A stretch of DNA of 26,673 nt, taken from the NCBI GenBank assembly GCA_014436445.1, contig GCA_014436445.1_4089.1. One strand, written 5' to 3'. Each line of letters begins with the position of its first letter. The first letter of the stretch is position 1. Positions 1 to 15,551 of the stretch are shown piece after piece. The stretch comes from a phage. The notes beneath the pieces were generated by a model. It searched no databases. It was not told the DNA's origin and worked only from the letters and a program-made list of their open reading frames with translations. The position numbers and the translations under genes were made by a program.

Positions 1-148
1 CATACCTTTCCTGAAAGTTAGTTCCAATGAATAGTGCCATAATTAATTCACGCTTATAGGCAATACCACGGTCATGGGACTTATACATTATCATAGCCAT
101 GTTATTGATAAGTCTTTCGTGGTGCTGTTCTTTAGTTAAAATACGCAT
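1..148 (-). CDS. hypothetical protein, 5' portion (start codon at 148-146, continues past window start)
   Basis: ATG preceded by AAGGGAG Shine-Dalgarno; open frame with no stop to position 1 (MRILTKEQHHERLINNMAMIMYKSHDRGIAYKRELIMALF...). Not in the ORF track because incomplete. Confidence 0.4.
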   Translation of the reverse strand, partial: MRILTKEQHHERLINNMAMIMYKSHDRGIAYKRELIMALFIGTNFQERY

Positions 149-397
149 AGGGACTCCCTTAAAATTAATATCAATCATATTTTATACGATTCATATAAAA
201 AGTCAATAACATTTTATTCGTAATACCCCTTTATCGAAGTCGCTAAGGTTACCCGCCCTTTAGCCCCCTACGCATTTTGCCATAGTCCAATCCCTTTTAT
301 TTCAAAAAAGTCAAGGGATTACCTATGCATTTTTTTAACGCATAATTTTAAAAACGCCTTGACTTTTTTCTGAATCAGTACTAGATCCCTTTACGCA

Positions 398-607
398 TTA
401 ATCCTTCGTTACGCTAACGATTATCTGTGTATCCCCGTAGTCCTGCCATACTTCCACGCCATCCGTCGCCCTGGTTAGTCGTGCTGTCATCTGCTTAACA
501 GTCTTAGGCTTTAGTGGAACCTGTTGCAGTACTGTACGCATAGCATCACTGACGTTATCATGTACGCCAGCAATCGTACCTAGAACGCTGTATACTGTAT
601 AGAACAT
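398..607 (-). CDS. hypothetical small protein (69 aa)
   Basis: Track ORF; AGGAGG Shine-Dalgarno 7 nt upstream of ATG. Confidence 0.55.
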   Translation of the reverse strand: MFYTVYSVLGTIAGVHDNVSDAMRTVLQQVPLKPKTVKQMTARLTRATDGVEVWQDYGDTQIIVSVTKD

Positions 608-675
608 ATGTATGCCCTCCTGATATAGTTAAGGCCGCTAGAGAGCGGCCTATGATGTTTGGTGATGTGTTGTGC

Positions 676-1077
676 TTATAGTCCTAAGATAGTGCGTGCT
701 TCGTTACGTTCCGTCCATAGCTGCATGATGTGAGCAAGTAAGTCCTTACTAATGTATCCGGTGTTCATAGCTTCACGGATAGATACATCATAAGCACCGA
801 ACCCCGTGCGAACGATACGCACATCATTTAGGTTAGTGTTATAGATACCGCCAAGATCAACGGCTTCGAATACTGCATCAACTGAATACTCATTGTTACC
901 ATCGTTGAAGTTTTCTAGTGCAATAGTATTGGATACCGCCCAACGTTTGCAGTTTCCAATGATGCGGCATTGTTCCGGTTGGAGAGTGCCATTACTTACA
1001 GCGTACTCCAGTGCATCTTTACCAAAAGTCCGAGCCAGTACTAAAACGTCAGCGAAGGAAGTGATTGAGAAGGTCAT
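676..1077 (-). CDS. hypothetical protein (133 aa)
   Basis: Track ORF 676..1110 trimmed to the internal ATG at 1077, which has an AAGGAG Shine-Dalgarno and lies downstream of the leader hairpin and promoter at 1096-1158. Confidence 0.6.
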   Translation of the reverse strand: MTFSITSFADVLVLARTFGKDALEYAVSNGTLQPEQCRIIGNCKRWAVSNTIALENFNDGNNEYSVDAVFEAVDLGGIYNTNLNDVRIVRTGFGAYDVSIREAMNTGYISKDLLAHIMQLWTERNEARTILGL

Positions 1078-1095
1078 GATAAAACTCCTTAATTT

Positions 1096-1118
1096 AGGAG
1101 GGAGAACCATTTCCCCCT
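1096..1118 (-). promoter_or_regulatory. conserved palindromic 5'-leader hairpin (representative of about 20 copies)
   Basis: GGAGGGAGAACCATTTCCCCCTC lies between the -10 element and the Shine-Dalgarno site; the same position holds GGGGAGAACTATTCTCCCC, GGGGAAACCGTTTCCCC and GCGGGAACTATTCCCGC variants elsewhere, with stem pairing preserved. Confidence 0.6.
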
Positions 1119-1130
1119 CTCTATGTAAAA

Positions 1131-1158
1131 CATTATACTTGATTCTAAGTACTATGCA
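1131..1158 (-). promoter_or_regulatory. sigma70-type promoter (TTGCAT, 16 nt, TATAAT), representative of the hairpin-leader class
   Basis: Minus-strand reading is TTGCAT AGTACTTAGAATCAAG TATAAT; the same architecture recurs upstream of most minus-strand genes in 1-18800. Confidence 0.6.
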
Positions 1159-1166
1159 AGTACTTT

Positions 1167-1493
1167 TTACATTTTAATTCCTGGATTCAGGTAGCGGTGA
1201 GATCCATATTCTGGATCGGTTTCGGTCCAGTACTGTAAATCTATAGTACCCTTTGCGTTAATCTTGTCTACCAGCTTATTCATCTTACTGTAGACTACTT
1301 CGCTAGGGATGTAGTGTAATCCTTTATTATAGAAGTAGTGGTTAGCTTCACTGTCATTTAAGATATAGCGTGCACCGTTTGCGGTTTGTGCAACGATGAA
1401 AGAGTATTCTACTTCCCGATCATTACCATCAACAGTAATGCGGTCGAAATTGGTACGGATGAAAGCTTTAACGATAGCGATTGAAGTACTCAT
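1167..1493 (-). CDS. hypothetical protein (108 aa)
   Basis: Track ORF; AGGAGA Shine-Dalgarno; upstream promoter TTGACA, 17 nt, AATAAT at about 1540-1570. Confidence 0.6.
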   Translation of the reverse strand: MSTSIAIVKAFIRTNFDRITVDGNDREVEYSFIVAQTANGARYILNDSEANHYFYNKGLHYIPSEVVYSKMNKLVDKINAKGTIDLQYWTETDPEYGSHRYLNPGIKM

Positions 1494-1593
1494 GGTGAAT
1501 CTCCTAACTTTGTGGGCCGTCGCACCATTGCCGCCCTACGAGATACATTATTGCAGTACTGATATACTTTGTCAATACTTTTTCCATTAAAAT

Positions 1594-1809
1594 TTATTTA
1601 CAGAACTGTAGCCCGACTGTGTTCGGATAGTACACACATCTTTCACGCTTACCGCTAAACGCAGATATCCAGGATAATTTGTATGCCACTGGCTCAGGTG
1701 CAAGAGGATTATTTGAATAATCGAGAACTTTAACAATTAAACGGTCCCCAACATACCAGCCAGTTGACTCTTTGATACGGTCGATAATTTCTTGTTTGGT
1801 TAACGCCAT
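1594..1809 (-). CDS. hypothetical small protein (71 aa)
   Basis: Track ORF 1594..1842 trimmed to the ATG at 1809 (MALTKQEII...); the promoter and leader at 1843-1900 are near-identical to those upstream of 1167..1493. Confidence 0.5.
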   Translation of the reverse strand: MALTKQEIIDRIKESTGWYVGDRLIVKVLDYSNNPLAPEPVAYKLSWISAFSGKRERCVYYPNTVGLQFCK

Positions 1810-2023
1810 TTTATATCTCGCTCTTTTGGAGGTGGGCTGCACTATTGCCGCCCTACGAGATACATTATCGCAGTACTGATATACTTTGTCAATACTTTTT
1901 TTGAAATAGTTTTGAGTACTGGCATTACATCCACCAGCAGATAGTTACTCACCGTTATTAACTATCTTATAGATACTTCTCTGCACCCTGTGGGCTAGTT
2001 TTTGTCTATGCGTATATAATAGC

Positions 2024-2056
2024 AAAGGGACTGACCGGAGTCAATCCCTTTTTTTT
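2024..2056 (-). terminator. intrinsic terminator hairpin that also contains a promoter -35 (composite repeat, copy 1 of 4)
   Basis: GGGACTGACCGGAGTCAATCCC stem-loop flanked by A and T runs directly after the stop of 2068..2268. On the minus strand the hairpin contains TTGACT, followed 17 nt later by TATTAT. Copies at 4283-4312, 7424-7453 and 11120-11148. Confidence 0.55.
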
Positions 2057-2067
2057 ATTCTTTTTTG

Positions 2068-2268
2068 TTAGATGATTCTCCAATCTTCTACCAGGATTTT
2101 AATATACCGTACCAGTGATTCGAGTGATTCCACTTCCCGATAATCGGTAGCCGTTTGCACGGAACAAGTACAGCCGATCAAGCCATTGCCAAGCTCTTTG
2201 ATCTGTACATCGATGCAGTTGGCTTTTGCTTCATTCAGTACTGCAACCAATTCGTTAGCGATTGACAT
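2068..2268 (-). CDS. hypothetical small protein (66 aa)
   Basis: Track ORF; AGGAG Shine-Dalgarno; leader hairpin and promoter at 2288-2340. Confidence 0.6.
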   Translation of the reverse strand: MSIANELVAVLNEAKANCIDVQIKELGNGLIGCTCSVQTATDYREVESLESLVRYIKILVEDWRII

Positions 2269-2356
2269 AATGTTTTACTCCTAAAGGTGCGGGAGAACTA
2301 TTCCCCCGCTCTATGTAAAACATTATACATTATCTTGTAGTACTGTCAAATAGTTT

Positions 2357-2614
2357 TTATGAGATATCTTCGATATAGTCGGCCCATGTCATTTGTTCAG
2401 TACTATCGAGTGCACCAGGATTATTTGGATCAAACCATTCGCCATCCCCTAAGTACATTGCAGCGGATACCGCTTTATAGCCATTATAGGCGTTATTCCA
2501 CTGCATAGCACGATAGATACGGCCTTTGATTGGTGTCTGTACTGGTAATGTTTTATGGTCTTCTACGTAGGCCATAGCTTGAGGATTTACCCGATATTGT
2601 GTGAACTGTTCCAT
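2357..2614 (-). CDS. hypothetical protein (85 aa)
   Basis: Track ORF; AAGGGGAAA Shine-Dalgarno; promoter TTGACA at about 2650-2680. Confidence 0.6.
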   Translation of the reverse strand: MEQFTQYRVNPQAMAYVEDHKTLPVQTPIKGRIYRAMQWNNAYNGYKAVSAAMYLGDGEWFDPNNPGALDSTEQMTWADYIEDIS

Positions 2615-2689
2615 TATGTTTCCCCTTGTAGTTAGTAAAGTTATTACATCAGTACTATCAAGCTATGTCAATAGTACTGAAATAAAACT

Positions 2690-2914
2690 TTAGATTAGAT
2701 TATTGATGCCGTTGATGGTAGACTCGCTTTCTTCTTTCTCCCATTGGCGGTAATACTTCCATGCTTCATGATAGGTGGCGATCAGTTCATCTTTTTGATC
2801 CTGAGTACATGCCAGTACTGAATCACTGTAAGCGGTGTTATAGATAGAATCAAATGATTTCTTCTCTTCTGCCAGGGTAGCTACTTCCCGCATCAGTTCA
2901 TCAAAGTTAGCCAT
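2690..2914 (-). CDS. hypothetical small protein (74 aa)
   Basis: Track ORF 2690..2959 trimmed to the ATG at 2914 (MANFDELM...); the longer form would read through the leader hairpin at 2931-2953. AAGGAG Shine-Dalgarno. Confidence 0.6.
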   Translation of the reverse strand: MANFDELMREVATLAEEKKSFDSIYNTAYSDSVLACTQDQKDELIATYHEAWKYYRQWEKEESESTINGINNLI

Positions 2915-2982
2915 TTTAGTACTCCTTATTAGTGGGGGAGGATATCTCCCCCTATGCAAAACATTATACTTTGTTTTAGTTA

Positions 2983-3246
2983 TTATGCAAGTACTTTTTT
3001 CATATAAACATTGTATTCTACACCGCCGTAACCTTCGCAGATGATATGTTTTGAGTTATCACGTTTGCACATCGTAAAGGCATCGTTGACGTGTTTTGCA
3101 TTTTCCAGGGCAACATCACCGATAGCGGCACATACTGAACTAATAACGATATTCCGCAAAGTACTGGTATCATTAGCGGTCATAGTAGTTTGCAGTACTA
3201 CGTTGTCGTATACGTGTGCATTGATAGTGATTTCGATAGTGTTCAT
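2983..3246 (-). CDS. hypothetical protein (87 aa)
   Basis: Track ORF; AGGAGA Shine-Dalgarno; hairpin leader and TTGCAT/TATAAT promoter at 3266-3330. Confidence 0.6.
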   Translation of the reverse strand: MNTIEITINAHVYDNVVLQTTMTANDTSTLRNIVISSVCAAIGDVALENAKHVNDAFTMCKRDNSKHIICEGYGGVEYNVYMKKVLA

Positions 3247-3334
3247 GGTGTATCTCCTGGACTTGAGGGGAAACCATTTCCCCCCTCTCGATATAAAACA
3301 TTATACGTTAATCTAACTACAATGCAAGTACTTT

Positions 3335-3526
3335 TTAAATTTTATTTCCGATATAGTCCGGCCTATTCTTTTCGGTCATACGCTTTGCTAATGTTTGCAT
3401 ATAGCTTATCGCGTTTAAGGTGTCTTCCTCCAGGGATGAATCAACATAATCAGGATCATTCTTCACCTTGCAATGATTATGATAGCGTAGTACTGCCAGT
3501 ACTTTTTTAACTTCTTCAACTGTCAT
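3335..3526 (-). CDS. hypothetical small protein (63 aa), overlaps the upstream stop by 4 nt
   Basis: Track ORF; start and stop overlap with 3523..3795 suggests translational coupling. Confidence 0.5.
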   Translation of the reverse strand: MTVEEVKKVLAVLRYHNHCKVKNDPDYVDSSLEEDTLNAISYMQTLAKRMTEKNRPDYIGNKI

Positions 3527-3795
3527 AATAAGTATTCCACTTCGTTAGCTTTCAGGTTAGTATCGATCATCAGTGGTTTTTTGTAGTCCACAAAACGATT
3601 AGTTTTCTCGATAGCGAAGCCCATATAATCCAGTTTGCTTACAGTACATTCATTCTTAAAAACTTCTTTCGCGGCATTGATGGCTGATTCAATTGATAAC
3701 CGCCCATCTAAATTAATGTTACCAAATGATCCACCAGCAGAAGTAGGATTACCGTTCATATCTTTAATAATCATAGTAGCGGAGTAGCTGGACAT
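3523..3795 (-). CDS. hypothetical protein (90 aa), first gene of a two-gene operon
   Basis: Track ORF; leader hairpin GGGGAGAACTATTCTCCCC and TTGACA/TATAAT promoter at 3816-3880. Confidence 0.6.
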   Translation of the reverse strand: MSSYSATMIIKDMNGNPTSAGGSFGNINLDGRLSIESAINAAKEVFKNECTVSKLDYMGFAIEKTNRFVDYKKPLMIDTNLKANEVEYLL

Positions 3796-3878
3796 AATTT
3801 TGTTTCCTTTTATTGTGGGGAGAACTATTCTCCCCTTGATGTAAACTATTATACAGTACTGATATACTTTGTCAATAC

Positions 3879-4100
3879 TTAATTACGTTTAAAATGATAT
3901 GTACCGTTATCATCCTGTACGCCCCATACTGATTTACCATCAACACCAGTGAAGCCGGATTGTAATTCAATATGGAAACCATTATTATCAACTACAAAAA
4001 CTTTTTTATTTTCATCCCGATAACATTGATATTCTGAATCAACATTAAAGGCCGCATCATTCAGAAGATTGGAAGCGTAAATGCAAGTCATTGTAGTCAT
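3879..4100 (-). CDS. hypothetical small protein (73 aa)
   Basis: Track ORF 3879..4175 trimmed to the ATG at 4100, which has an AAGGAA Shine-Dalgarno; the longer form overlaps the leader hairpin at 4118-4140. Confidence 0.55.
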   Translation of the reverse strand: MTTMTCIYASNLLNDAAFNVDSEYQCYRDENKKVFVVDNNGFHIELQSGFTGVDGKSVWGVQDDNGTYHFKRN

Positions 4101-4321
4101 GATTTTATTCCTTATTGCCAGGGAGAACCGTTTCCCCCTCTCGATATAAAACATTATACTTGATTCTAAGTACAATGCAAGTACTTTTTATCAAATAGTT
4201 TTCAGTACTGAATACTTATATAATATATACATTTATGCACCCTGTGGGTCAGTGAGCTATCTCTCAATGAATATATAATAGCAAAGGGACTGACCGGAGT
4301 CAATCCCTTTTTTAATCTTTT

Positions 4322-4906
4322 TTATCGTGTTATAGTTACGGCTTTTACATCACGCTTTTTATAGTACTGATTCCAGATATTGCGGGTTAAACCGTAATCA
4401 AGTACTTTAATAAGGCCGTTGCGATCCTGGCCGATATTCTGTTTTCTGATATCTCTTATCGTCAGTGTTGATAAGGTATCATCAACGTGTTGTAGTGCAT
4501 CAGCAAAGCGGTGCTGGCGTTCAATGGCATTACGTTTAATATTGTACTTTAATTCGTTGCACGCGTTAACGTGCTTTACACTGCCTTTACTTGCAGTACT
4601 CAACCGATCCATAACAATAAACATATTATCAGGATCGCTTAAATGCATATGCACTTTAGCGAAGAACTGTTTCAACTGAGGGCGGTCATAGTCTAAAAAA
4701 TTCCATACCCTACATTCTGTTTCATTTTGTTCTACACCCGCATCACAATTCGCGACCTTGATCACTAACCGATCATTTAAAGCGAATACAATACGGGAAG
4801 AACCCGCACCGATGATCTCCAGACCAGCTAACCGACAAGCTGAAAGGATCTCTTTGTTGGTTTCCATTTCTGACAGTGTACGGATGAATTTAGTATAATT
4901 ACGCAT
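4322..4906 (-). CDS. minimal protein-kinase-like protein (194 aa)
   Basis: Track ORF trimmed to the ATG at 4906 (AAGGAG Shine-Dalgarno). Motifs in order: glycine-rich loop IIGAGSSRIVF, beta3 lysine LVIKV, catalytic-loop-like IRDIRKQNIG (compare HRDLKPENI), DYG about 20 residues later (compare DFG). The protein ends soon after DYG. Confidence 0.55.
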   Translation of the reverse strand: MRNYTKFIRTLSEMETNKEILSACRLAGLEIIGAGSSRIVFALNDRLVIKVANCDAGVEQNETECRVWNFLDYDRPQLKQFFAKVHMHLSDPDNMFIVMDRLSTASKGSVKHVNACNELKYNIKRNAIERQHRFADALQHVDDTLSTLTIRDIRKQNIGQDRNGLIKVLDYGLTRNIWNQYYKKRDVKAVTITR

Positions 4907-4937
4907 TGTTTTATCTCCTTGAGTTAATGAAACTATA

Positions 4938-5180
4938 TTACAGTACTTTACTATCAATGGCAACTACTTTTTTAACACTTACAGCGTGAATCACTTCCTT
5001 AGTGTTTTTAGTACTGAATACTTTCGCTGTTCCTTGTTCTACTGCAATGCGATAACGACCGTTAACATCAACCATATTAATAAAGTCCGGTGTACTAAAC
5101 CGAGTAGTACGGCATTTCAGTACTGTTAACAGTTCCACCAGCGATGTAGTTTCTTTGATACGTTTTTCTAAAGTAATCAT
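4938..5180 (-). CDS. hypothetical protein (80 aa)
   Basis: Track ORF; second promoter class (TTGACAGTACTCAAATGTTTTAGTACTATG...) at 5195-5240, repeated at 5470-5520. Confidence 0.55.
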   Translation of the reverse strand: MITLEKRIKETTSLVELLTVLKCRTTRFSTPDFINMVDVNGRYRIAVEQGTAKVFSTKNTKEVIHAVSVKKVVAIDSKVL

Positions 5181-5238
5181 TTTGTTTTCCCCCGTGTTGG
5201 TATAGATACATAGTACTAAAACATTTGAGTACTGTCAA

Positions 5239-5457
5239 TTAGATAATATTATATTTCTTAAAATAAAATGCGTCCTGTGTTGGTTGATACTCGATACCGT
5301 TCCCGTTATTGACTTCAACTAATAAACCTTTGTCAATTAGTTTTTTAATAGTACGATACCCCTGTTGAAAATTGGTAAAATGTGAATCATTACGAAAGGT
5401 ATAACCGTGCTTAACTGCTTCATCAATAGTTTTCTTTTCGATTTTAGATAATTTCAT
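5239..5457 (-). CDS. hypothetical small protein (72 aa), possibly a winged-helix DNA-binding protein
   Basis: Track ORF trimmed to the ATG at 5457 (MKLSKIEKKTIDEAVKHGYTF...); the TIKKLIDKGLLVEV segment resembles a winged-helix recognition helix and wing. Weak. Confidence 0.45.
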   Translation of the reverse strand: MKLSKIEKKTIDEAVKHGYTFRNDSHFTNFQQGYRTIKKLIDKGLLVEVNNGNGIEYQPTQDAFYFKKYNII

Positions 5458-5513
5458 TTTGTTTCTCTCTCTGTGTTGGTATAGATACATAATACTAAAA
5501 CAATTGAGTACTG

Positions 5514-5768
5514 TCAACGTGATATTAGTTTTATTTTTTTATTGTATTGTTGGTGTTCATATAGATTAATTTTTCCAGTACTCTCGATCACTATTCTATT
5601 GTTAGTGTCTACGTCGATTACACGTAGTTTCCCGTTGCTTAACTTCCTAGGCAATAGACTACCATTAATAAACTCATTAGCAAGCTGTACGGCCTTTGTG
5701 ATGATTCTCTGTGGGGCTTTATAGTGTACCCGTAATACATTATCGTTTGATAGTTGAACCTTAATCAT
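5514..5768 (-). CDS. hypothetical protein (84 aa)
   Basis: Track ORF; preceded by the hairpin at 5783-5807. Confidence 0.5.
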   Translation of the reverse strand: MIKVQLSNDNVLRVHYKAPQRIITKAVQLANEFINGSLLPRKLSNGKLRVIDVDTNNRIVIESTGKINLYEHQQYNKKIKLISR

Positions 5769-5782
5769 TTTGTTTATCCTAT

Positions 5783-5807
5783 AAAAAAGGCGGGAACAGT
5801 TCCCGCC
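5783..5807 (-). terminator. intrinsic terminator or attenuator hairpin
   Basis: GGCGGGAACAGTTCCCGCC followed on the minus strand by TTTTTTAT, between the stop of 5831..6226 and the start of 5514..5768. Confidence 0.5.
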
Positions 5808-5830
5808 GTGTTGTTAGTACTGCAAAGTTA

Positions 5831-6226
5831 TTAGATAACCTGGCGGCGTTTACTGTATACTGTTACACGGTTTCCTTTACGGTCATGACGGATCTCTTTC
5901 TGGTTACGAATCAGTTCACTTGGACGCTTAAGGTTTGCCAGGTGATCCGCGTGAGTCCATGCATTTGCGTTAACTGTAACTTCAATATCAGAACCTTTCA
6001 AAAAGTCATCTTGAGCGTTCAGTACTTCAGCCAGTTCTTGAGCTTGCTTTAGTTCTGCTGCTGTAAGTACAGGCTCAGGTGAATTCACAATATCAGAGAT
6101 CTCTTTGAACTGTACCGCCCAGCGTTGTCCTTTCGGTGCATCTTTGCCCATGTCTTTAAATGTTTCACCTTCTTCACGGGCAACGATGCGAGCTTGTTCA
6201 CGGGTAGCGAAGAATTTAGTAATCAT
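5831..6226 (-). CDS. hypothetical protein (131 aa), paralog of 17753..18019
   Basis: Track ORF trimmed to the ATG at 6226 (AGGATG Shine-Dalgarno). Shares FATRExARI.AR..G.TFKDMG...G.RWAV and HDRKGNRVTVYS with 17753..18019, and the two promoter regions are near-identical. Confidence 0.6.
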   Translation of the reverse strand: MITKFFATREQARIVAREEGETFKDMGKDAPKGQRWAVQFKEISDIVNSPEPVLTAAELKQAQELAEVLNAQDDFLKGSDIEVTVNANAWTHADHLANLKRPSELIRNQKEIRHDRKGNRVTVYSKRRQVI

Positions 6227-6325
6227 GGTGTACATCCTATTAGTTAAGTTAATTAGTACTACAAGTTAGAGTCTATTATAAAGTACTATCTGGGCAATGT
6301 CAAATAGTACTTTAAATGGATTCTA

Positions 6326-6649
6326 TTACATGTCTTTCTTACGTTTTACATCGTAGTAACGAACTGTAATTTCTTTGTTGATCTCTTCCTCGATGCGGTG
6401 AATAACTTTTTCTTTCGGGTTGAAACCTATAACGGTTTCTTTAATGATCTCCAAGCCCGTGTATTCGCCTTGTGTACCGTAACCGTAAGTAAAGGTTTCA
6501 TGTCCCAGGTCTTCCCAGCGGTCACCAATCAATGCAGACACGTAGCATGAGTGGTAAGTATTGCCGTGGCTATCAGTCCACCGATTAACTTTAATGTCAA
6601 AGGAAGTTACAATTTTCATTTCTACTTTCTGGGTAAGGATCATAGTCAT
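6326..6649 (-). CDS. hypothetical protein (107 aa), paralog of 12703..13047
   Basis: Track ORF; shared motifs RW...GNTY.S, Y.YGYG and a C-terminal DVKRKKD(M/L); leader hairpin at 6671-6695. Confidence 0.6.
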   Translation of the reverse strand: MTMILTQKVEMKIVTSFDIKVNRWTDSHGNTYHSCYVSALIGDRWEDLGHETFTYGYGTQGEYTGLEIIKETVIGFNPKEKVIHRIEEEINKEITVRYYDVKRKKDM

Positions 6650-6736
6650 TTTAATTTCTCTCTTTTTGTTAGGAGGGGAACCATTCCCCTCACTTGATGT
6701 AAACTATTATACAGTACTAAGATACTTTGTCAATAC

Positions 6737-6871
6737 TTATTTGTTTTCTTTTCGTAATTTCTTTTCAGCTTCAACTACATTACGATTTGTGCAAACCACT
6801 TCATCGGATAAATCTAACTTCCAGCCAGCCAGGGGATTGGTTGCTTTTTTAGTGTTGTTTGCTGCTTTCAT
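6737..6871 (-). CDS. hypothetical small protein (44 aa; MKAANNTKKATNPLAGWKLDLSDEVVCTNRNVVEAEKKLRKENK)
   Basis: Not in the track (under 60 aa). Own promoter TTGACAATAGTTTTTAGTACTGTATAAT at 6890-6935 and an AAGGAAACATC Shine-Dalgarno before the ATG. Confidence 0.4.
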   Translation of the reverse strand: MKAANNTKKATNPLAGWKLDLSDEVVCTNRNVVEAEKKLRKENK

Positions 6872-6938
6872 GATGTTTCCTTATTAATTAAGATGTAAAC
6901 TATTATACAGTACTAAAAACTATTGTCAAACTATTTTA

Positions 6939-7139
6939 TCAAATTGTTTCCCATTTCATGTTACCCGCTTTACGCTGTGCAACAGGAATAAACATGTTAT
7001 TAATGTTACTAATATAACCGACCTGTAAGTCACGCTGTGAACCATACGCCCGACTTGCTGCATTTTTAGCACCGCGTTCTGATTTATAAACGCCGCTGGA
7101 TACTGTAAAGCCTACTACACCGAAAGTAAAATGTTTCAT
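6939..7139 (-). CDS. hypothetical small protein (66 aa)
   Basis: Track ORF; AAAGAGGAA Shine-Dalgarno; promoter TTGACA, 16 nt, TATAAT at 7160-7195. Confidence 0.55.
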   Translation of the reverse strand: MKHFTFGVVGFTVSSGVYKSERGAKNAASRAYGSQRDLQVGYISNINNMFIPVAQRKAGNMKWETI

Positions 7140-7205
7140 TTTGTATTCCTCTTTGTGGTTTATGTAAGTATTATACTCGTTTAATTTCTATTGTCAAACT
7201 ATTTT

Positions 7206-7281
7206 ATCAGGGGAGGTTTTCGTATGTCTTACTCCTGGACTACTTAACGGGGAGTTACTTGTTTCGTTCCCCGTCCTGATG
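7206..7281 (-). ncRNA. candidate structured RNA or leader element, copy 1 (copy 2 at 17522-17597)
   Basis: A ~76-nt element bounded by the inverted termini ATCAGG...CCTGAT, with an internal CGGGGA...TCCCCG stem, transcribed from the TTGCAT/TATAAT promoter at about 7283-7320. It differs from the 17522-17597 copy at only 4 positions. Confidence 0.35.
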
Positions 7282-7462
7282 TAAAACATTATACTTGATT
7301 CTAAGTACAATGCAAGTACTTTTTAAAAATAGTTTTCAGTACTTGATAGTACTAGCCACCAGCATATAATAGATACATTTATGCACCCTGTGGGCTGATT
7401 TGTTTCTATGCGTATATAATAGCAAAGGGACTGACCGGAGTCAATCCCTTTTTTAAATCTTT

Positions 7463-7612
7463 TTAAACTTGTTTTGGGTTGCGATATGTGATAGCGTTCG
7501 GGTACATTTGTTTAATGTTATTCCATGCCTGGTTAACATTGTAACCACTTGATCGAATCAGTTGGTTACTACCGACACCTTGAAACACTACTTCAAATAA
7601 GAATTCTTTCAT
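7463..7612 (-). CDS. hypothetical small protein (49 aa)
   Basis: Not in the track. GAGGTG Shine-Dalgarno; followed by the terminator repeat at 7424-7453. Confidence 0.4.
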   Translation of the reverse strand: MKEFLFEVVFQGVGSNQLIRSSGYNVNQAWNNIKQMYPNAITYRNPKQV

Positions 7613-7782
7613 GCTTTCACCTCGCTATCTGCTTTGCCTTTACGCCAGGCCGTTGCTAATTGTTCGCGTTGCCATAAGTCGAGTGATACGTAAAGTTTTG
7701 CATTATCACCCTTCGGATATTCGCCAGTAGTGCCTAACCGATAAAACAGATCTTTCAGTACTGATAATTCTACTTGGATCAT
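7609..7782 (-). CDS. hypothetical small protein (57 aa)
   Basis: Not in the track. AGGAG Shine-Dalgarno; ATGA overlap with the downstream ORF. Confidence 0.4.
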   Translation of the reverse strand: MIQVELSVLKDLFYRLGTTGEYPKGDNAKLYVSLDLWQREQLATAWRKGKADSEVKA

Positions 7783-7871
7783 TGTATTACTCCTGATTGT
7801 GTTAGTACTTCTACGATGGCATGAATGATCATAAGTACAGCTAACACAACAATCATCGGATTCATTTGCAT
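7779..7871 (-). CDS. 30-aa hydrophobic peptide (MQMNPMIVVLAVLMIIHAIVEVLTQSGVIQ), predicted single-pass membrane peptide
   Basis: Not in the track. AAGGAG Shine-Dalgarno 8 nt before the ATG; about 20 consecutive hydrophobic residues; its stop overlaps the next start (ATGA). Confidence 0.4.
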   Translation of the reverse strand: MQMNPMIVVLAVLMIIHAIVEVLTQSGVIQ

Positions 7872-7888
7872 AAGCTGTACTCCTTCTA

Positions 7889-8101
7889 TTAATCTTTCAG
7901 CCAATGATCTTGAATGAATTTTTCACAGAATCCCTGTTTCATAGATTCTAACAGGCGTTCACGGTGAGCGGCGGCATATTGCTCAGTACTATGCGTTACG
8001 CCAGGTTGATAACGTGAAACACCGTCTGGTCCGATATATTGAACATCCCACGGTTTTTCGTTAGTATCAGACCATTTACGAACGATTAGTTGACCTTGCA
8101 T
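7889..8101 (-). CDS. hypothetical small protein (70 aa), first gene of a four-gene micro-operon
   Basis: Track ORF; AAGAGGAAAG Shine-Dalgarno; leader hairpin GGGGAGAATCATTTCTCCCC and promoter at 8110-8180. Confidence 0.6.
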   Translation of the reverse strand: MQGQLIVRKWSDTNEKPWDVQYIGPDGVSRYQPGVTHSTEQYAAAHRERLLESMKQGFCEKFIQDHWLKD

Positions 8102-8186
8102 GTTTCTTTCCTCTTAGTGGGGAGAATCATTTCTCCCCTTCATGTAAACTATTATACAGTACTACGATGCTTTGTCAAATACTTTT

Positions 8187-8375
8187 TTAAAGTTTATGAA
8201 TCAATTCTTTATCTAAGCGATAGCGAACATTATTGATTGTAACTGCATTGTTTTTAATGCTACGCTGTACAGGTCCACCAGCAATAACAAACGTTGCCTT
8301 ATTGCCCCGAACGATGATAGCACTTCCAGGATTACCAAAATCATCTTGTACTAAAATACTTGATAAGTTTTGCAT
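8187..8375 (-). CDS. hypothetical small protein (62 aa)
   Basis: Track ORF; leader hairpin and promoter at 8390-8450. Confidence 0.55.
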   Translation of the reverse strand: MQNLSSILVQDDFGNPGSAIIVRGNKATFVIAGGPVQRSIKNNAVTINNVRYRLDKELIHKL

Positions 8376-8454
8376 TTGTCTTTCCTTGTAGTGGGGAGAA
8401 CTATTCTCCCCTTCATGTAAACTATTATACAGTACTTAAAACTAAATGCAAGTA

Positions 8455-8811
8455 CTAGGATAAAATCATTATAGGATATTCACAGTTAATCAGTACTTCA
8501 AAACCAAAACTTTCATACCATTCTTTAAGATTAAACTCGTTATCTTCTCCCGTATCGCATTCTAAGATGATACAATCTGAATCATCGGCGGCATCAATAA
8601 AGGCATTCATTAATTCAGTACCTTCACCGTTACCGCGATTATCGGGATCAACATAAAGAGAATCAATAAACGCTACACGATCATAATCAAGATCCGGTGC
8701 AACAATGCCACGTTTAACAAACCAGTACTGCAATTGTGCTACTTTGCCTTGTACTTGATAGCCAGTGATCTCACCATTGTCTGTAGTACGCGTGATATGT
8801 TGTATACCCAT
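8455..8811 (-). CDS. small protein with a GNAT acetyltransferase-like motif (118 aa)
   Basis: The segment LYVDPDNRGNGEGTELMNAF resembles GNAT motif A (the acetyl-CoA-binding R/Q-x-x-G-x-G/A loop), but the protein is shorter than a typical GNAT. GAGGA Shine-Dalgarno; TTGACA/TATAAT promoter at 8835-8870. Confidence 0.5.
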   Translation of the reverse strand: MGIQHITRTTDNGEITGYQVQGKVAQLQYWFVKRGIVAPDLDYDRVAFIDSLYVDPDNRGNGEGTELMNAFIDAADDSDCIILECDTGEDNEFNLKEWYESFGFEVLINCEYPIMILS

Positions 8812-8874
8812 GATTTCAATCCTCAGTTAAGATATAAAATATTATACACTAACTAACAGCACTGTCAATACTTT

Positions 8875-9132
8875 TTATCTCATAGATCTATGCCAACAAT
8901 TACGGGGATTGCGTTTGAATATGCTATCATGATCAGCCTGGCAAGTGATGCAGTACTTACACCCCTTAACGGCCAGGCGGCGATTCTCAGGGATTTTATC
9001 GCCGCAGTCGAGGCAATGTATCAGTGATTCTATTTGTGCGTTAATTTGCGTTCTAGCGTGGTTTACAGCGGCCTGAATCACTGCGTTAATCTCGTCTTGC
9101 TCGGCCCCGTCCTTCGCGAATCCAACAGCCAT
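8875..9132 (-). CDS. TraR/DksA-family C4 zinc-finger protein (85 aa)
   Basis: CLDCGDKIPENRRLAVKGCKYCITCQ matches the TraR/DksA C-x2-C-x17-C-x2-C zinc finger with the conserved IPE.RR core. GAGGT Shine-Dalgarno. Confidence 0.75.
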   Translation of the reverse strand: MAVGFAKDGAEQDEINAVIQAAVNHARTQINAQIESLIHCLDCGDKIPENRRLAVKGCKYCITCQADHDSIFKRNPRNCWHRSMR

Positions 9133-9295
9133 TATTTTAACCTCATTATAAAAATACTATAGTACTGTAATGCTACAATAATACTACTAGTACTGATTTT
9201 ATTCAAACCGTATGATACTACATATTCCCCAGCATTACCACGAATGGTAACGCCTTTGTACTTTCTATATAATTTCAACTACGTTTATTGCCTTT

Positions 9296-9366
9296 GATCA
9301 AGATTTGATCAGAATTATACGCCTTATGCTAAATTGATCCAGTACTTTTTTGATCATTTATTGATC
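9296..9366. repeat. cluster of five TTGATC(A) repeats (five GATC sites in 71 bp)
   Basis: GATC at 9296, 9307, 9336, 9352 and 9363, each within a TTGATC heptamer context; roughly 20-fold denser than expected at this base composition. Confidence 0.6.
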
Positions 9367-9461
9367 GATATTATATAGTTACATTTGTGCACCCTATGGG
9401 TTAGTGACGTTCTCGTCTTGATGTAAGTATTATGCTAGTACTGGCATAATTTGTCAATAGA

Positions 9462-9659
9462 TTATTTTAACTTTTTTCTGTCATTGATTAATGCTTTCAG
9501 TACTATACTAATGATTTGCAATGATTCATCAATGACTATAAAATTATTTTCTTTCATTAGATGATAGTTACCATTGATTGTATATTCTAAGGAGTACTGT
9601 TTACGTTTAATTTTTGATAATGTTTCTATTTGTTTTTGTACTGATTTCATGCTAATCAT
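9462..9659 (-). CDS. hypothetical small lysine-rich protein (65 aa), weakly supported
   Basis: Track ORF with no convincing Shine-Dalgarno or promoter; very AT-rich. Confidence 0.3.
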   Translation of the reverse strand: MISMKSVQKQIETLSKIKRKQYSLEYTINGNYHLMKENNFIVIDESLQIISIVLKALINDRKKLK

Positions 9660-9764
9660 TGTTAAACGTCCTGTAACGCATTCTAACGAGTTAAACGGTT
9701 TAGTACTGGCATTGTATAGGGTAAATGATTATAGCCCACCAGCGTTAACCAGTGGGCTATAATC

Positions 9765-9908
9765 TTACATCTTGCGGATAATCTTAACAGTATCTTTCAC
9801 CGATTTACCGTCTTGCTGGCATTGCTCGATCATCGCGTATTGTTCTGCGGTCAGATCCTCGCCAGTTTTTGCCAGTACTGCGTCGATGAATGAATCCAGT
9901 GCGATCAT
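9765..9908 (-). CDS. hypothetical small protein (47 aa; MIALDSFIDAVLAKTGEDLTAEQYAMIEQCQQDGKSVKDTVKIIRKM)
   Basis: Not in the track. Promoter TTGACA, 16 nt, TATAAT at about 9940-9985; stop followed by hairpin AGCCCAC...GTGGGCT at 9731-9758. Confidence 0.4.
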   Translation of the reverse strand: MIALDSFIDAVLAKTGEDLTAEQYAMIEQCQQDGKSVKDTVKIIRKM

Positions 9909-10007
9909 TTTATTTCTCTCTTAGGTTAAGTTAACTACTGTTGATAAAAGTTATTATACAGTACTATCAAACATTGTCAATAGATTTAATAGTACTGGTA
10001 ATATATT

Positions 10008-10187
10008 TTAGCGGTAATCGTCGTATGCTTTATTAACCTGGCGAATGTAACTTTCAAAGGCTTCGTCTACCGTTTCATACTCCCGAACATAATCACCATA
10101 GGAAACTACATACATCCCTTTTTGATCTTCAAACGTCATGATGATAGAATCCAGGCCGATGATTTCAGTTTTTGCGATAATAGCCAT
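10008..10187 (-). CDS. hypothetical small protein (59 aa)
   Basis: Track ORF 10008..10259 trimmed to the ATG at 10187 (AAGGAA Shine-Dalgarno); the extension would cover the promoter (TTGACA, 17 nt, CATAAT) and leader. Confidence 0.5.
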   Translation of the reverse strand: MAIIAKTEIIGLDSIIMTFEDQKGMYVVSYGDYVREYETVDEAFESYIRQVNKAYDDYR

Positions 10188-10278
10188 TTTAGTATTCCTT
10201 AAATTAATATGCGTTGTCTTGATAAAAGTTATTATGCCAGTACTATCAAACGTTGTCAATAGTACTGTGATAATATTT

Positions 10279-10491
10279 TTAGTTAATGATAGTCAGTGTA
10301 AAATTGTAATCCCCTGCCTGGTATAGTACTTTATCGCCGAACGTGCCAACACGTTTCATATTGCAATAGATACCCATAACATTTTTTACATCTTTGATAT
10401 TCCGAACGCCAGTGATATCCTTGTTGAAATTTTCATGATCAGAAAATAAAACTTGTTTTGCATTTTTCAGTACAGTGCGGATATTAGCCAT
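10279..10491 (-). CDS. hypothetical small protein (70 aa)
   Basis: Track ORF; leader hairpin GGGGAGAACTATTCTCCCC and TTGACA/TATAAT promoter at 10511-10575. Confidence 0.6.
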   Translation of the reverse strand: MANIRTVLKNAKQVLFSDHENFNKDITGVRNIKDVKNVMGIYCNMKRVGTFGDKVLYQAGDYNFTLTIIN

Positions 10492-10586
10492 TTTGTTTTC
10501 TCTCTCTGTTAGTGGGGAGAACTATTCTCCCCTTGATGTAAACTATTATACAGTACTAAAAACTATTGTCAAACTATTTTTTAATA

Positions 10587-10928
10587 TTATTCGAAATCTT
10601 CTGGACCGGACTGATAATCATCTTCACCGTATGCACTTTCTAACTTCTCGCCAGTATGATCATCAGTTAGTGAGTCATCCTCATAGTTCACGTCTACGCC
10701 CGTGATGTAAAACTGGCTATCGTCTGGATCATTGAAATTAATTTTCTGAATGTTTACAATAACTGTATTGATACCCAGGACACAGCCATCAGCCGTTACA
10801 AAGTACTGATATTTTTCACATCCACCACTATTGAAACCGTAATTGATTTCGGCCCGACCATCATTTAAACGCAGTGCCTGAGCGATGATTTCGTTTTCAA
10901 AGTTAGATTGAGCAATTGCAATAGTCAT
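10587..10928 (-). CDS. hypothetical protein with a strongly acidic C-terminal tail (113 aa)
   Basis: Track ORF; C-terminal ~40 residues are rich in D/E (YEDDSLTDDHTGEKLESAYGEDDYQSGPEDFE); leader hairpin and promoter at 10947-11010. Confidence 0.6.
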   Translation of the reverse strand: MTIAIAQSNFENEIIAQALRLNDGRAEINYGFNSGGCEKYQYFVTADGCVLGINTVIVNIQKINFNDPDDSQFYITGVDVNYEDDSLTDDHTGEKLESAYGEDDYQSGPEDFE

Positions 10929-11157
10929 GATTCGTTTCCTTATTACCAGGGGAAACCGTTTCCCCTTGCGATGTAAAACATTATACGCCTATTGAGATAG
11001 TATGCAAGTACTTTTTATCAAATACTTTAAAATAGTTTTCTGTACTCAATCATTATACAATAGATACACTCCTGCACCCTGTGGGCTAGTGAGCTATCTC
11101 TCAATGAATATATAATAGCAAAATGGCTGACCGAAGTCAACCACTTTTTCATTTATT

Positions 11158-11286
11158 TTTAGCTTTCAGAATCGCCGCCTTTCGCGTCATGCCTTGCTTG
11201 ATGTACTCCTTTACTTTCGCTTTACGTGCTTTCGCTTTATCTGCTTTCGTTTTAGGAGTACTGTAAATTAAACCGTTAGGATTCAT
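11158..11286 (-). CDS. hypothetical very basic small protein (42 aa; MNPNGLIYSTPKTKADKAKARKAKVKEYIKQGMTRKAAILKA)
   Basis: Not in the track. GGTGA Shine-Dalgarno; lysine- and arginine-rich; followed by the terminator repeat at 11120-11148. Confidence 0.35.
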
Positions 11287-11376
11287 TTAAATCACCATAA
11301 AGAATAGATAGGTTACTAACAATGCCGCGATCAATGCACCGACCAGGGCCGAACTGTAATAAGCTAATGATTTCAT
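11287..11376 (-). CDS. 29-aa hydrophobic peptide (MKSLAYYSSALVGALIAALLVTYLFFMVI), predicted membrane peptide
   Basis: Not in the track. ATGA overlap with the upstream gene; continuous hydrophobic stretch; stop abuts the next ATG. Confidence 0.4.
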   Translation of the reverse strand: MKSLAYYSSALVGALIAALLVTYLFFMVI

Positions 11377-11525
11377 TTTTTAGCCTGAAAGTAATGTTTA
11401 ATTTGTGCGGCGGTCAGTGCACAATTACGCAGGAAGTTTTCTGTATAACTCCTACGAGTACTGAAAGAAAATTGACCTTTGCCGTTGCCGATAGTAACAT
11501 CAAACCGAGCGTTGTATTGTTTCAT
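11373..11525 (-). CDS. hypothetical small protein (50 aa)
   Basis: Track ORF 11373..11555 trimmed to the ATG at 11525 (AGGAG Shine-Dalgarno) downstream of the leader hairpin at 11543-11565. Confidence 0.5.
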   Translation of the reverse strand: MKQYNARFDVTIGNGKGQFSFSTRRSYTENFLRNCALTAAQIKHYFQAKK

Positions 11526-11608
11526 TTTGATTCTCCTAGTATCGGGGAGAACCATTCCCCCCCCCTCTATGTAAACAATTATACAGTACTGAAAACTAAT
11601 TGCAAGTA

Positions 11609-11851
11609 TTATTTTAAACTTTGTGCGACTAATTTCGCACGGTCAATCATATACTGCCATTTTTGGATCTCTTCTGGCAGAAAACGATATTCACCAATCA
11701 CAATAGTGATACACTTTTCAGCCTGGTCAATGTATGTAGTATCAATCTCAACCTGAACGGGTACACGTTCGCCGTATTCAGTACCAGGGACAATGCAATC
11801 ATTATCATAAGTAACCGTAAGTGCGGTATCTTTAATTAAAATAGTTTCCAT
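11609..11851 (-). CDS. hypothetical protein (80 aa)
   Basis: Track ORF 11609..11902 trimmed to the ATG at 11851 (GAGGAAAG Shine-Dalgarno); leader hairpin GCGGGAACTATTCCCGC at 11870-11888. Confidence 0.55.
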   Translation of the reverse strand: METILIKDTALTVTYDNDCIVPGTEYGERVPVQVEIDTTYIDQAEKCITIVIGEYRFLPEEIQKWQYMIDRAKLVAQSLK

Positions 11852-11919
11852 TATTCTTTCCTCGTTATAGGCGGGAACTATTCCCGCTCTCGATGTAAAC
11901 AATTATACAGTACTAAAAA

Positions 11920-12129
11920 CTAATTGCAAGTATTATTTTCTAAAAAATGTTTGTATGCTTCATCAACCACTCTTTCGATAACATACGCTAACGGCACGTA
12001 TCCAACTACATGACTACAATAAAAAGGACTACGATTAGAATCATCGTATGCAAATACTTTTTCAGGATCTGCATCAATCACATACATATTAACCTTTAAG
12101 ATGTCGATCTTATCCTGTACAGTAAGCAT
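11920..12129 (-). CDS. hypothetical small protein (69 aa)
   Basis: Track ORF 11920..12207 trimmed to the ATG at 12129, one nucleotide after the stop of 12131..12301 (coupled). Confidence 0.45.
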   Translation of the reverse strand: MLTVQDKIDILKVNMYVIDADPEKVFAYDDSNRSPFYCSHVVGYVPLAYVIERVVDEAYKHFLENNTCN

Positions 12130-12130
12130 A

Positions 12131-12301
12131 TTACGCCGCCTTATCAGTACTGGCAACCGGACGGATACGGGCCATTTCCTGGGCTTGTTCCACACTGTAA
12201 CGCTCATAAAGGCGGCATTCTTCCGGTGTTAGCATTGCATCAATACGTTTCATTGGTTTAATGATGCTTTCAACTTCATTTAGTACTTGATTAACATTCA
12301 T
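12131..12301 (-). CDS. hypothetical small protein (56 aa)
   Basis: Track ORF 12131..12334 trimmed to the ATG at 12301 (GAGGA Shine-Dalgarno). Confidence 0.45.
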   Translation of the reverse strand: MNVNQVLNEVESIIKPMKRIDAMLTPEECRLYERYSVEQAQEMARIRPVASTDKAA

Positions 12302-12352
12302 AGTATTATCCTCAAAATTAGCGGCCCAAATCAACCGCTAACGTTGTTTTGA

Positions 12353-12622
12353 TTAATAGGTGTATGGTTGACGCTCAAACAATGATTGCACGTTGTACGC
12401 CCCGCTAATGGGCTTCGCTGGTAAATCAATTTTATATTGTTCACGCTTAAAGATAATAAAACGGCAATTGTTTTTAACATCAAAATTGATTGAACGTTCC
12501 AGGAGTTTACCATCGTGCACAAATACAAGATAACCGCTCGCTACTTGTTTTGTAGTACTGGTTGCAACCATAGACCGCCGAACATGTGTACCTGCATCGA
12601 TTAAAGTACTGATATTTTTCAT
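12353..12622 (-). CDS. hypothetical protein (89 aa)
   Basis: Track ORF; AAGAGGAA Shine-Dalgarno. Confidence 0.55.
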   Translation of the reverse strand: MKNISTLIDAGTHVRRSMVATSTTKQVASGYLVFVHDGKLLERSINFDVKNNCRFIIFKREQYKIDLPAKPISGAYNVQSLFERQPYTY

Positions 12623-12702
12623 TATACGTTCCTCTTAAGTTAATTTAATTTCTTTCCCCTATGCAGACACTATATCAAAGTATCTGCATAAAGTAAAGCT
12701 AA

Positions 12703-13047
12703 TTAAAGATCTTTTTTGCGTTTAACATCACTAACAGAACTATAAACAGTGATATTATTATCACGGCAAAAACGGGAAAGATAAGAACCGCGTAAAAACT
12801 CTTTACCTTCCATATTAATAACCTTGCTAAATTCTTCCATTGCTACAGTGTCAAAATGATCCCCGTATCCATATTGGAACGGCACGTTTACTACTTCAAT
12901 AAAATTACCATCAATTTCTACGTCTACACTTAAAGAGAAATAAGTGTTACCATATGAAGCCTGGAACCAACGCCGAGCGGCAATATGTACAACTTCAACA
13001 GAAGACAGGTTGATATTTTGTGCTGAGATAGTGTTGATGTTAGCCAT
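12703..13047 (-). CDS. hypothetical protein (114 aa), paralog of 6326..6649
   Basis: Track ORF; family motifs as for 6326..6649; promoter of the TTGACA, 17 nt, CATAAT class inside the 13042-13138 repeat. Confidence 0.6.
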   Translation of the reverse strand: MANINTISAQNINLSSVEVVHIAARRWFQASYGNTYFSLSVDVEIDGNFIEVVNVPFQYGYGDHFDTVAMEEFSKVINMEGKEFLRGSYLSRFCRDNNITVYSSVSDVKRKKDL

Positions 13048-13138
13048 TTTTTGTTTCCTCTTAGTTGTCTTGATAAAATCTATTATGCCAGTACTATCAA
13101 ACTATGTCAATAGTACTGTGATAATAATTTTACTTACT
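13042..13138. repeat. ~96-bp direct repeat, copy A (copy B at 13337-13432)
   Basis: Near-identical promoter, leader and first-codon cassette (CCATTTTTTGTTTCCTCTTAGTTGTCTTGATAAAATCTATTATGCCAGTACTATCAA...) flanking gene 13130..13342; the copies differ only at about 2-3 positions. Confidence 0.7.
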
Positions 13139-13342
13139 TTGCTTTGATGCTTTATGTTGTGCAACTGCCATCACTACATCAGCACGAACAAAGTTAGCAA
13201 CCGTATCAGTATAATATTTGATTGCATCGTCAATATCTGCGAACATCCGATACATTCCGCACCATGATACTTTATAACCCGCTTTCACTTGTTCCAGTTT
13301 AACCAGTGAATTGTTTACTTTGATTTTTGTAATGATAGCCAT
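13130..13342 (-). CDS. hypothetical small protein (70 aa)
   Basis: Track ORF; Shine-Dalgarno and promoter lie within repeat copy B. Confidence 0.55.
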   Translation of the reverse strand: MAIITKIKVNNSLVKLEQVKAGYKVSWCGMYRMFADIDDAIKYYTDTVANFVRADVVMAVAQHKASKQSK

Positions 13343-13423
13343 TTTTGTTTCCTCTTAGTTGTCTTGATAAAATCTATTATGCCAGTACTATCAATCTATG
13401 TCAATAGTACTGTGATAATAATT

Positions 13424-13567: not shown

Positions 13568-13652
13568 ATTAGTTTCCTCATTATCAGGGAGAACCATTTC
13601 TCCCCTTGATGTAATGTATTATACTTTATCTGATTTACTTTGCAAGTACTTT

Positions 13653-15545: not shown

Positions 15546-15551
15546 ACTTAC

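Follow-up and report, generated by a model that had tools for sequence, protein, structure and literature searches.

Can a protein of only 194 amino acids, which ends shortly behind its putative metal-binding motif, still be a protein kinase, and what would a phage use it for? This question is raised by an open reading frame in a stretch of phage DNA of 26,673 nucleotides, here called the window, in which a preliminary description made from the sequence alone had proposed a minimal protein-kinase-like gene. The window is 92-95% identical to the Asteriusvirus jumbo coliphages phAPEC6, PBECO4, 121Q, G17, Sharanji and others, the genomes of which comprise approximately 350-385 kb.

Public annotation already contains the kinase-like reading. 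The counterpart in K64-1 is annotated as 'protein kinase', those in Munch, SE_PL and fENko-Kae01 as 'putative protein kinase', the records of Turkey3, Turkey5 and fEgEco12 have 'serine/threonine-protein kinase' and UniProt lists the PBECO4 protein as 'Protein kinase domain-containing protein'; the gene is also listed in the Sharanji paper. In the literature on this gene, its relatives or 'minimal' phage kinases, annotation-level mentions only were found. Judged by this literature, the definition of the family with its signature (GxGxxR, QNxxE and a stop past the DFG) appears to be new, as do the remote link to the T7 gp0.7 kinase (T7K), the location in the direct terminal repeat (DTR), the tandem arrays and the tape-measure fusion which are described below.

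The gene and its kinase motifs

The coordinates given in the preliminary description were right, but they have to be read on the minus strand (Table 1); the plus-strand frame at 4322-4906 is not open and contains stops throughout. The ATG at 4906, and not the TTG at 4963, is supported as start codon because an AAGGAG precedes it by 8 nt, the N-termini of the homologues align at M1 and the annotated orthologues measure 585 bp. Named orthologues of the 194-aa protein are G17_00012, Sharanji gp063 (WNN14351.1) and PBECO4 L7TKF0. Comparison with phage G17 yielded a pN/pS of 0.15 for the gene, which indicates purifying selection, and a PHROG scan assigned the product to phrog_4301 (E 2e-42), a group annotated as 'unknown function'.

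Table 1. Features of the kinase-like locus and perfect sigma-70 promoters, with positions in the window
Feature	Position	Strand	Remarks
Coding sequence, 194-aa minimal protein-kinase-like protein	4322..4906	minus	ATG 4906, TAA 4322-4324
Shine-Dalgarno AAGGAG	4915..4920	minus	8 nt 5' of ATG
Two N-terminal helices, residues 4-26, before the N-lobe	4829..4897	minus	AlphaFold2, hhalign; align with T7K-type N-terminal helices
Gly-rich ATP-binding loop IIGAGSSRIVF, residues 31-41	4784..4816	minus	GxGxxR pattern
VIK, residues 48-50, beta-3	4757..4765	minus	Lys50 = VAIK lysine
Family signature G57-x-x-Q60-N61-x-x-E64, start of alpha-C helix	4715..4738	minus	Alignment, AlphaFold2 model
Catalytic loop IRDIRKQN, residues 150-157	4436..4459	minus	Asp152 = HRD-type catalytic base, Asn157 metal-binding
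DYG, residues 170-172	4391..4399	minus	DFG-equivalent Mg-binding motif, then only 22 residues
80-aa gene directly upstream of kinase	4938..5180	minus	31-nt gap
Sigma-70-like promoter TTGACA-17-TACTAT, 10/12	5210..5238	minus	Consensus match only; candidate promoter of the unit
Hairpin AAAGGGATTGACTCCGGTCAGTCCCTTT, 12 nt past the kinase stop	4283..4310	minus	Terminator-like; G17 equivalent annotated terminator
Perfect promoters (12/12), first five	2322-2349, 3848-3875, 6275-6303, 6706-6733, 6902-6929	minus	Sigma-70 consensus
Perfect promoters (12/12), other six	7170-7197, 8151-8178, 8841-8868, 9953-9980, 10545-10572, 17486-17513	minus	Sigma-70 consensus

All four motifs that had been quoted before (glycine-rich loop, VIK lysine, catalytic loop and DYG) were recovered in the order described, with 18 residues from Asp152 to Asp170, and the protein does terminate shortly after the last of them. 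The spacing equals that in PKA, where D166 and D184 are likewise 18 residues apart. Conservation was counted over 128 aligned family members. Arg38, Lys50 and Glu64 are each found in 128/128, followed by Asp170, Gly57 and Gln60 (127/128 each), Gly172 (126/128), Asn61 (124/128) and Asp152 (122/128). Within the glycine-rich loop G33-A-G35-S-S-R38 the first two glycines are kept in 109 and 121 of the 128 sequences, respectively, while the invariant Arg38 takes the place of the third glycine in the canonical GxGxxG. The middle residue of DYG is Y in 105 and F in 15 of the 128. Position 157 is variable throughout the family (N in 43, H in 38, S in 31 and Q in 11 of 128 sequences), whereas Asn157 is retained in the 194-aa protein and its jumbo-phage orthologues. 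Glu64, which sits in helix 55-73 of the AlphaFold2 model, would be the salt-bridge partner of Lys50. All elements of a PKL/ePK core are found, namely the Gly-rich loop, the beta-3 Lys with the alpha-C Glu, and the catalytic Asp/Asn together with the DFG Asp.

Profile search and structure prediction had been named as checks in the preliminary description, and both point towards a kinase. The single sequence stays below the Pfam thresholds, with E 0.0018 and 18.1 bits for Pkinase (PF00069; gathering cutoff 31.7) and 17.7 bits for PK_Tyr_Ser-Thr (PF07714; cutoff 23.1). An NCBIfam scan gave nothing useful (best 0.048), PADLOC reported the kinase PD-T4-6 (1.2e-4), and phmmer against PDB produced 93 matches with E >= 0.011, those listed being all protein kinases in register on the catalytic loop/DFG. 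A family profile built from 50 relatives and searched against PDB at E <= 0.01 matched 162 chains; the matches listed were all protein kinases (best MKK4, 1.4e-5), with no APH or CAK among them. No Pfam family reached its threshold in any of the 128 members, for which the best E-value was 5.7e-6. The weak matches among them included the PKL-type kinase families Pkinase (15), ABC1 (6), PK_Tyr (5), AceK (4), YrbL (2) and Kinase-PolyVal (2), and the APH, Choline_kinase and Kdo models gave no match in the 128. The two Kinase-PolyVal (PF18762) matches, with a best E of 0.0069, do not amount to membership in that family. No curated Pfam or NCBIfam family covering the protein was found; judged by its sequence, it belongs to an uncurated PKL family.

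AlphaFold2, run on the 128-sequence alignment, predicted a bilobal kinase-like fold with a pLDDT of 94.5 and a pTM of 0.90. In the N-terminal part of the model two helices are followed by beta1-beta3, a long alpha-C and beta-5, and in the C-terminal part two alpha-D/alpha-E-like helices are followed by the strands of the catalytic loop and DFG and by one short helix (175-182). The idea of a pared-down kinase core is borne out by the invariant motif residues, this model and the family profile which matches kinases. That the motifs might be a chance resemblance in a non-kinase or even non-coding ORF is hardly conceivable and was rejected: the subthreshold Pfam score of the single sequence would fit such an explanation, but the purifying selection, the invariant residues, the confident kinase-like model, the 162 PDB matches of the family profile and the occurrence in 54 phage records and at least 292 cluster representatives (see below) do not.

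In a structure search, however, the small-molecule kinase APH(2'') and SAICAR synthetase ranked level with protein kinases, which makes the modelled fold compatible with more than one class of substrate. Kinases of the SteC/OspG type were absent from the top 50-60 structural matches. The nearest neighbours in BFVD outside the family itself were phage proteins of 130-260 aa, including the T7-like kinases of Pantoea SK1, Ralstonia RSB1, Yersinia fPS-53 and Xylella Cota (TMq 0.51-0.58). A match to PaMx11 in BFVD brought up a 5-hmdU DNA kinase as a further candidate, which was ruled out since 5-HMUDKs are P-loop kinases (PMC8989533) and the fold here is PKL.

A kinase-like core with a truncated C-lobe

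The protein keeps Hanks subdomains I-VII and lacks the activation segment, the P+1 loop, the APE motif and alpha-F to alpha-I. Correspondingly, the kinase models of Pfam, which have 258-263 positions, are aligned only up to about position 152-166, i.e. subdomains VIII-XI are absent. Sequence comparison indicates that this loss is by design and not a truncation of one copy, because throughout the family the chain ends soon after the DFG Asp (median 24 residues), the median length being 213 aa. The half of a canonical kinase that binds the protein substrate is wholly absent. Canonical ePKs (PF00069/PF07714; PknB, MKK4, PKC) differ from the 194-aa protein by this, by its subthreshold scores and by its Arg in place of the third Gly-loop glycine.

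The size of the protein had been called unusual, which holds in comparison with cellular kinases but not with phage kinases and the minimal effector kinases SteC and OspG. HopBF1 is another minimal bacterial effector kinase. SteC and OspG are pared-down ePK-like domains of about 200-220 residues which are active in spite of a depleted C-lobe (PMC13395416). SteC (Salmonella) and OspG/NleH (Shigella/EPEC) are small, have a depleted C-lobe and are directed at the host, as is proposed for the 194-aa protein; they are secreted into eukaryotic cells, whereas the phage kinase would be expressed inside bacteria. In addition, SteC keeps alpha-EF/alpha-F and an activation-segment phosphosite (PMC13395416), whereas the present family stops right past the DFG, and the family profile matches the N-lobe of SteC only (8jbi_D, E 0.0014). 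As SteC constructs cut before alpha-F are inactive and OspG depends for activity on a partner, E2~ubiquitin (PMC13395416), analogy suggests that stand-alone activity of the 194-aa protein cannot be assumed.

The atypical small PKL kinases RIO1/RIO2 and Bud32/PRPK also count among the closest known systems. APH(2''), among the top-ranked structural matches, shares the PKL core and the catalytic Lys/Glu/Asp/Asn/Asp residues, but it has about 300 residues and a large helical substrate-binding C-terminal subdomain. The 194-aa protein has neither such a subdomain nor a match to the APH or Choline_kinase models.

T7 gp0.7 was an informative choice of comparator in the preliminary description. Profile-profile comparison gave a remote homology, and both proteins show a parallel truncated topology. 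T7K phosphorylates Ser, Thr and Tyr across the host proteome with extreme promiscuity and has an anti-defence phenotype, disarming many bacterial defence systems by mass phosphorylation; in its family a DPV/DPx motif replaces DFG (PMC13645617). According to the 2026 study of T7K, the jumbo phages G17 and Munch have distant homologues of this kinase (PMC13645617). BLASTP showed no similarity of the 194-aa protein to gp0.7, and the T7K PHROGs (phrog_2828/15752) did not match it at E <= 1, phrog_4301 being the only match. hhalign aligned the family with T7K members over 173 columns at 89.4% probability (E 2e-6) when gp0.7 was included and at 47% (E 1.9e-4) when jumbo-phage T7K members only were used, the alignment extending over the entire domain, with the N-terminal helices at one end and the Mg-binding Asp at the other. 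The AlphaFold2 model of the T7K-like protein (pLDDT 90.7) has a truncated topology parallel to that of the 194-aa protein.

The two groups have in common that they are early kinase domains of phages which stand alone and measure about 200-240 residues. Helices at the N-terminus are followed in both by a Gly loop, a beta-3 Lys, a D-x4-N loop and an Asp-x-x Mg site, behind which about 20 residues remain. The 194-aa protein differs by its DYG (DPV/DPL in T7K) and its assignment to PHROG 4301, by Arg38 where T7K has Ser at the third Gly-loop position, by the QNxxE signature which is absent from T7K, and by the lack of the shut-off/DNA-binding C-terminal domain. In the T7K family alignment T-D-P is invariant.

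Asteriusviruses also encode a true T7K homologue, gp144 of Sharanji (WNN14432.1; 224 aa; L004 28183-28857, minus strand), with a DPL motif, an E of 1e-97 to phrog_15752, a BLASTP E of 4e-8 to T7 gp0.7, and PF27024 in its relatives. This gene lies about 46 kb from the kinase-like gene and beyond the window, in which an HMM search of the six-frame ORFs recovered no T7K-like gene. Taken together, gp144 and the 194-aa protein mean that Asteriusviruses carry two different truncated kinases. That the latter is itself the jumbo-phage orthologue of gp0.7, as the reported homologues in G17 and Munch and the full-length hhalign alignment might indicate, is very improbable and was rejected in view of gp144 as the true homologue, the lack of a BLASTP match to gp0.7, the sole assignment to phrog_4301 and the DYG. 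Sequence and model comparisons lend moderate support to a relation at the superfamily level rather than to family membership, and we regard the family as a distant sister to the 'half-kinases' of the T7K type.

Distribution of the family and genomic setting

By tblastn the kinase-like protein was detected in 54 phage records. Identity is 92-100% in nearly all records of the Asteriusvirus type and 35-40% in the listed distant jumbo phages, which infect Escherichia (EJP2), Salmonella (Munch, 7t3, SE_PL), Klebsiella (RaK2, K64-1, fENko-Kae01) and Erwinia (Kaldavass); one Xanthomonas phage record was also among the matches. A HMMER scan of 1.84 billion cluster representatives (E <= 1e-3) extended the family to at least 292 representatives at 50% identity, mostly 160-290 aa in length and common in metagenomes.

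Many of the longer metagenomic members are tandem arrays with 2-4 complete domains per predicted polypeptide, in which Arg38, Lys50, Gln60, Glu64, Asp170 and Gly172 are present in every copy and Asn61 and Asp152 in nearly all. When ten longer members were scanned with Pfam, no informative fused domain beyond a second kinase-like region was detected; their extra length consists of tandem copies of the same mini-kinase domain. Examples are P0021, P0024, P0030, P0034, P0036, P0041 and others, predicted polypeptides of 450-970 aa with 2-4 tandem domains, which may be genuine fusions or neighbouring genes joined by gene calling or by recoding of stop codons. P0142, a protein of 3,248 aa (L009 2318-12064; Logan SRR32481264 contig), contains a PhageMin_Tail tape-measure domain at residues 125-315 (E 6e-30) and two tandem mini-kinase domains at residues ~648-1054. 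Its architecture suggests that in some phages the mini-kinase may be delivered to the host with the virion via the tape-measure protein.

In the window, a short unit comprises a promoter-like site, the 80-aa gene, the kinase as its last gene and the hairpin. The two genes are probably co-transcribed; a stronger sigma-70-like site (11/12) is found at 5489-5517. The hairpin looks like a terminator that would close the transcription unit. It belongs to a 28-nt repeat on the minus strand, which is identical at 2024-2051, 4283-4310 and 7424-7451 and has a variant at 11120-11147. The repeat is followed by GCTATTATAT, and its 5' arm holds TTGACT, with TATTAT 17 nt downstream, so that it may combine a terminator with a promoter in one cassette placed between early transcription units.

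The 11 perfect TTGACA-16/17-TATAAT promoters in the first 20 kb of the window (Table 1) are all on the strand of the kinase. Altogether, 104 promoter-like sites were observed at positions 1-20000, compared with 68 +/- 8 in shuffles, among small ORFs and hairpins resembling intrinsic terminators. This part of the window looks like a dense early-gene region for the host RNA polymerase. Moreover, the kinase gene is located inside the annotated direct terminal repeats of vB_Ec-M-J (DTR 1-21525) and fENko-Kae01 (DTR 1-19736) and is present twice in several phage records, its position in the DTR implying two copies per packaged genome. The placement in the early region, which had been proposed from the start, agrees with the DTR and the promoter-dense surroundings, and it is from promoter consensus and genome position that we infer early expression itself.

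The 80-aa gene adjoins the kinase also in EJP2 and in fENko-Kae01 (38% identity, E 5e-11), where the counterpart, ENKO_042, is annotated as detected by LC-MS/MS. The shared motif is RFST..D...V..DG...I.....KVYSTK. The ORF has no PHROG match, and no recognisable counterpart of it was seen in RaK2 or Kaldavass; its product may be a partner, a regulator or a substrate for the kinase. On the downstream side, the neighbouring gene of the window has no conserved counterpart in fENko-Kae01.

No tRNA genes were detected anywhere in the window, and the intervals 18988-21332 and 22765-23991 contain no ORFs of 70 aa or more on either strand. A 394-aa ORF at 24285-25469 (plus strand), which marks the exit from the block of small early ORFs, shares 26% identity (E 1e-8) with Sharanji gp106, which opens a run of about 12 genes of similar size, mostly ~370-400 aa, of which one is annotated as RCC1-repeat.

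Proposed function and alternatives

An active phosphotransferase is most likely because the ATP-binding, Mg-binding and catalytic residues are all conserved, and on sequence and model the protein is very probably a catalytically competent enzyme of PKL fold. As to its role, we lean on balance towards an early, host-directed protein kinase resembling T7K in its logic. This reading is based on the profiles, which among the matches listed recognise protein kinases exclusively, on the nearest characterised relative being a likewise truncated protein kinase, on the position of the gene in the early DTR and on the relative embedded in a tape-measure protein. In such a scheme, the host RNA polymerase would transcribe the gene from the early, terminally repeated end of the Asteriusvirus genome. 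The product would act as a minimal protein-kinase-like ATP phosphotransferase by means of its Gly-rich loop, Lys50, Glu64, Asp152/Asn157 and Asp170, and within the first minutes of infection it may phosphorylate host, and perhaps phage, proteins on Ser/Thr(/Tyr). It might help to take over the host or to counter host defences, much as the T7 gp0.7 kinase does; the family would be related to the latter only distantly and would evolve separately. The early timing, the protein rather than small-molecule substrates and the anti-host role are those parts of the scheme which we infer.

The absence of the peptide-binding half and the structural ranking of APH and SAICAR synthetase level with protein kinases would both suit a small-molecule or other non-protein kinase on a PKL scaffold, comparable to aminoglycoside, choline or Kdo kinases and acting on a metabolite, an antibiotic, an envelope sugar or a signalling nucleotide. 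We consider this rather unlikely, given that the listed ones among the 162 PDB profile matches are protein kinases, that the Pfam models APH, Choline_kinase and Kdo match none of the 128 members, that among characterised phage families the closest in similarity, T7K, is an equally truncated protein kinase, and that the neighbourhood contains no metabolic or modification genes but only small early ORFs without assigned function. The missing alpha-F, which is the central scaffold of a canonical C-lobe, raises a different possibility, namely an incomplete kinase that is inactive alone and to which a host protein or the 80-aa neighbour supplies the C-lobe functions, or in the extreme case a pseudokinase or scaffold. 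The inactive SteC fragments without alpha-F and the partner-dependent OspG (PMC13395416) would be precedents; the 80-aa gene is syntenic in three lineages in which the kinases are merely 35-39% identical, and the arrays of 2-4 domains suggest that cooperation between domains may matter. This explanation is nevertheless quite unlikely. The catalytic Lys/Glu/Asp/Asp are retained in 128, 128, 122 and 127 of the 128 members and nearly all tandem copies are intact, which argues against a pseudokinase, the 80-aa neighbour cannot be recognised in RaK2 or Kaldavass, and equally truncated T7K-type kinases are highly active, although T7K itself has an extra C-terminal domain (PMC13645617).

The early host-directed protein kinase can be extended to the family as a whole, which we offer tentatively as a possible, still doubtful reading. 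The family would then constitute a large uncurated 'half-kinase' lineage made up of subdomains I-VII, with the signature GxG[ST][SA]R...K...GxxQNxxE...D...DYG, that supplies constitutively active anti-defence effectors of low specificity to the first wave of phage infection. These would act in parallel to T7K and independently of it, and the 194-aa protein, which represents the lineage in cultured phages, coexists with T7K in Asteriusviruses. Three routes would lead there, i.e. transcription from the DTR with its two copies, concatenation of 2-4 domains, and injected tape-measure proteins.

If the family acts like T7K, phages would widely use promiscuous phosphorylation early in infection, and T7 would not be a special case; should the protein prove to be a kinase of ordinary specificity or one for small molecules, the impact would be modest. 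The Asteriusviruses with both kinase types offer a natural system for asking why one phage needs two, and the family is a natural experiment on how much of the kinase fold catalysis can do without. PHROG 4301 and many 'hypothetical protein' entries in GenBank could become 'protein-kinase-like, truncated C-lobe'.

No paralogue of the kinase was recovered in the window by an HMM search of all six-frame ORFs. Pectobacterium phage CBB has two separate mini-kinase paralogues in BFVD, A0A1L2CVI5 and A0A1L2CVG3, with 194 and 168 aa, respectively, which shows that multiplication of paralogues as separate genes also occurs in cultured phages.
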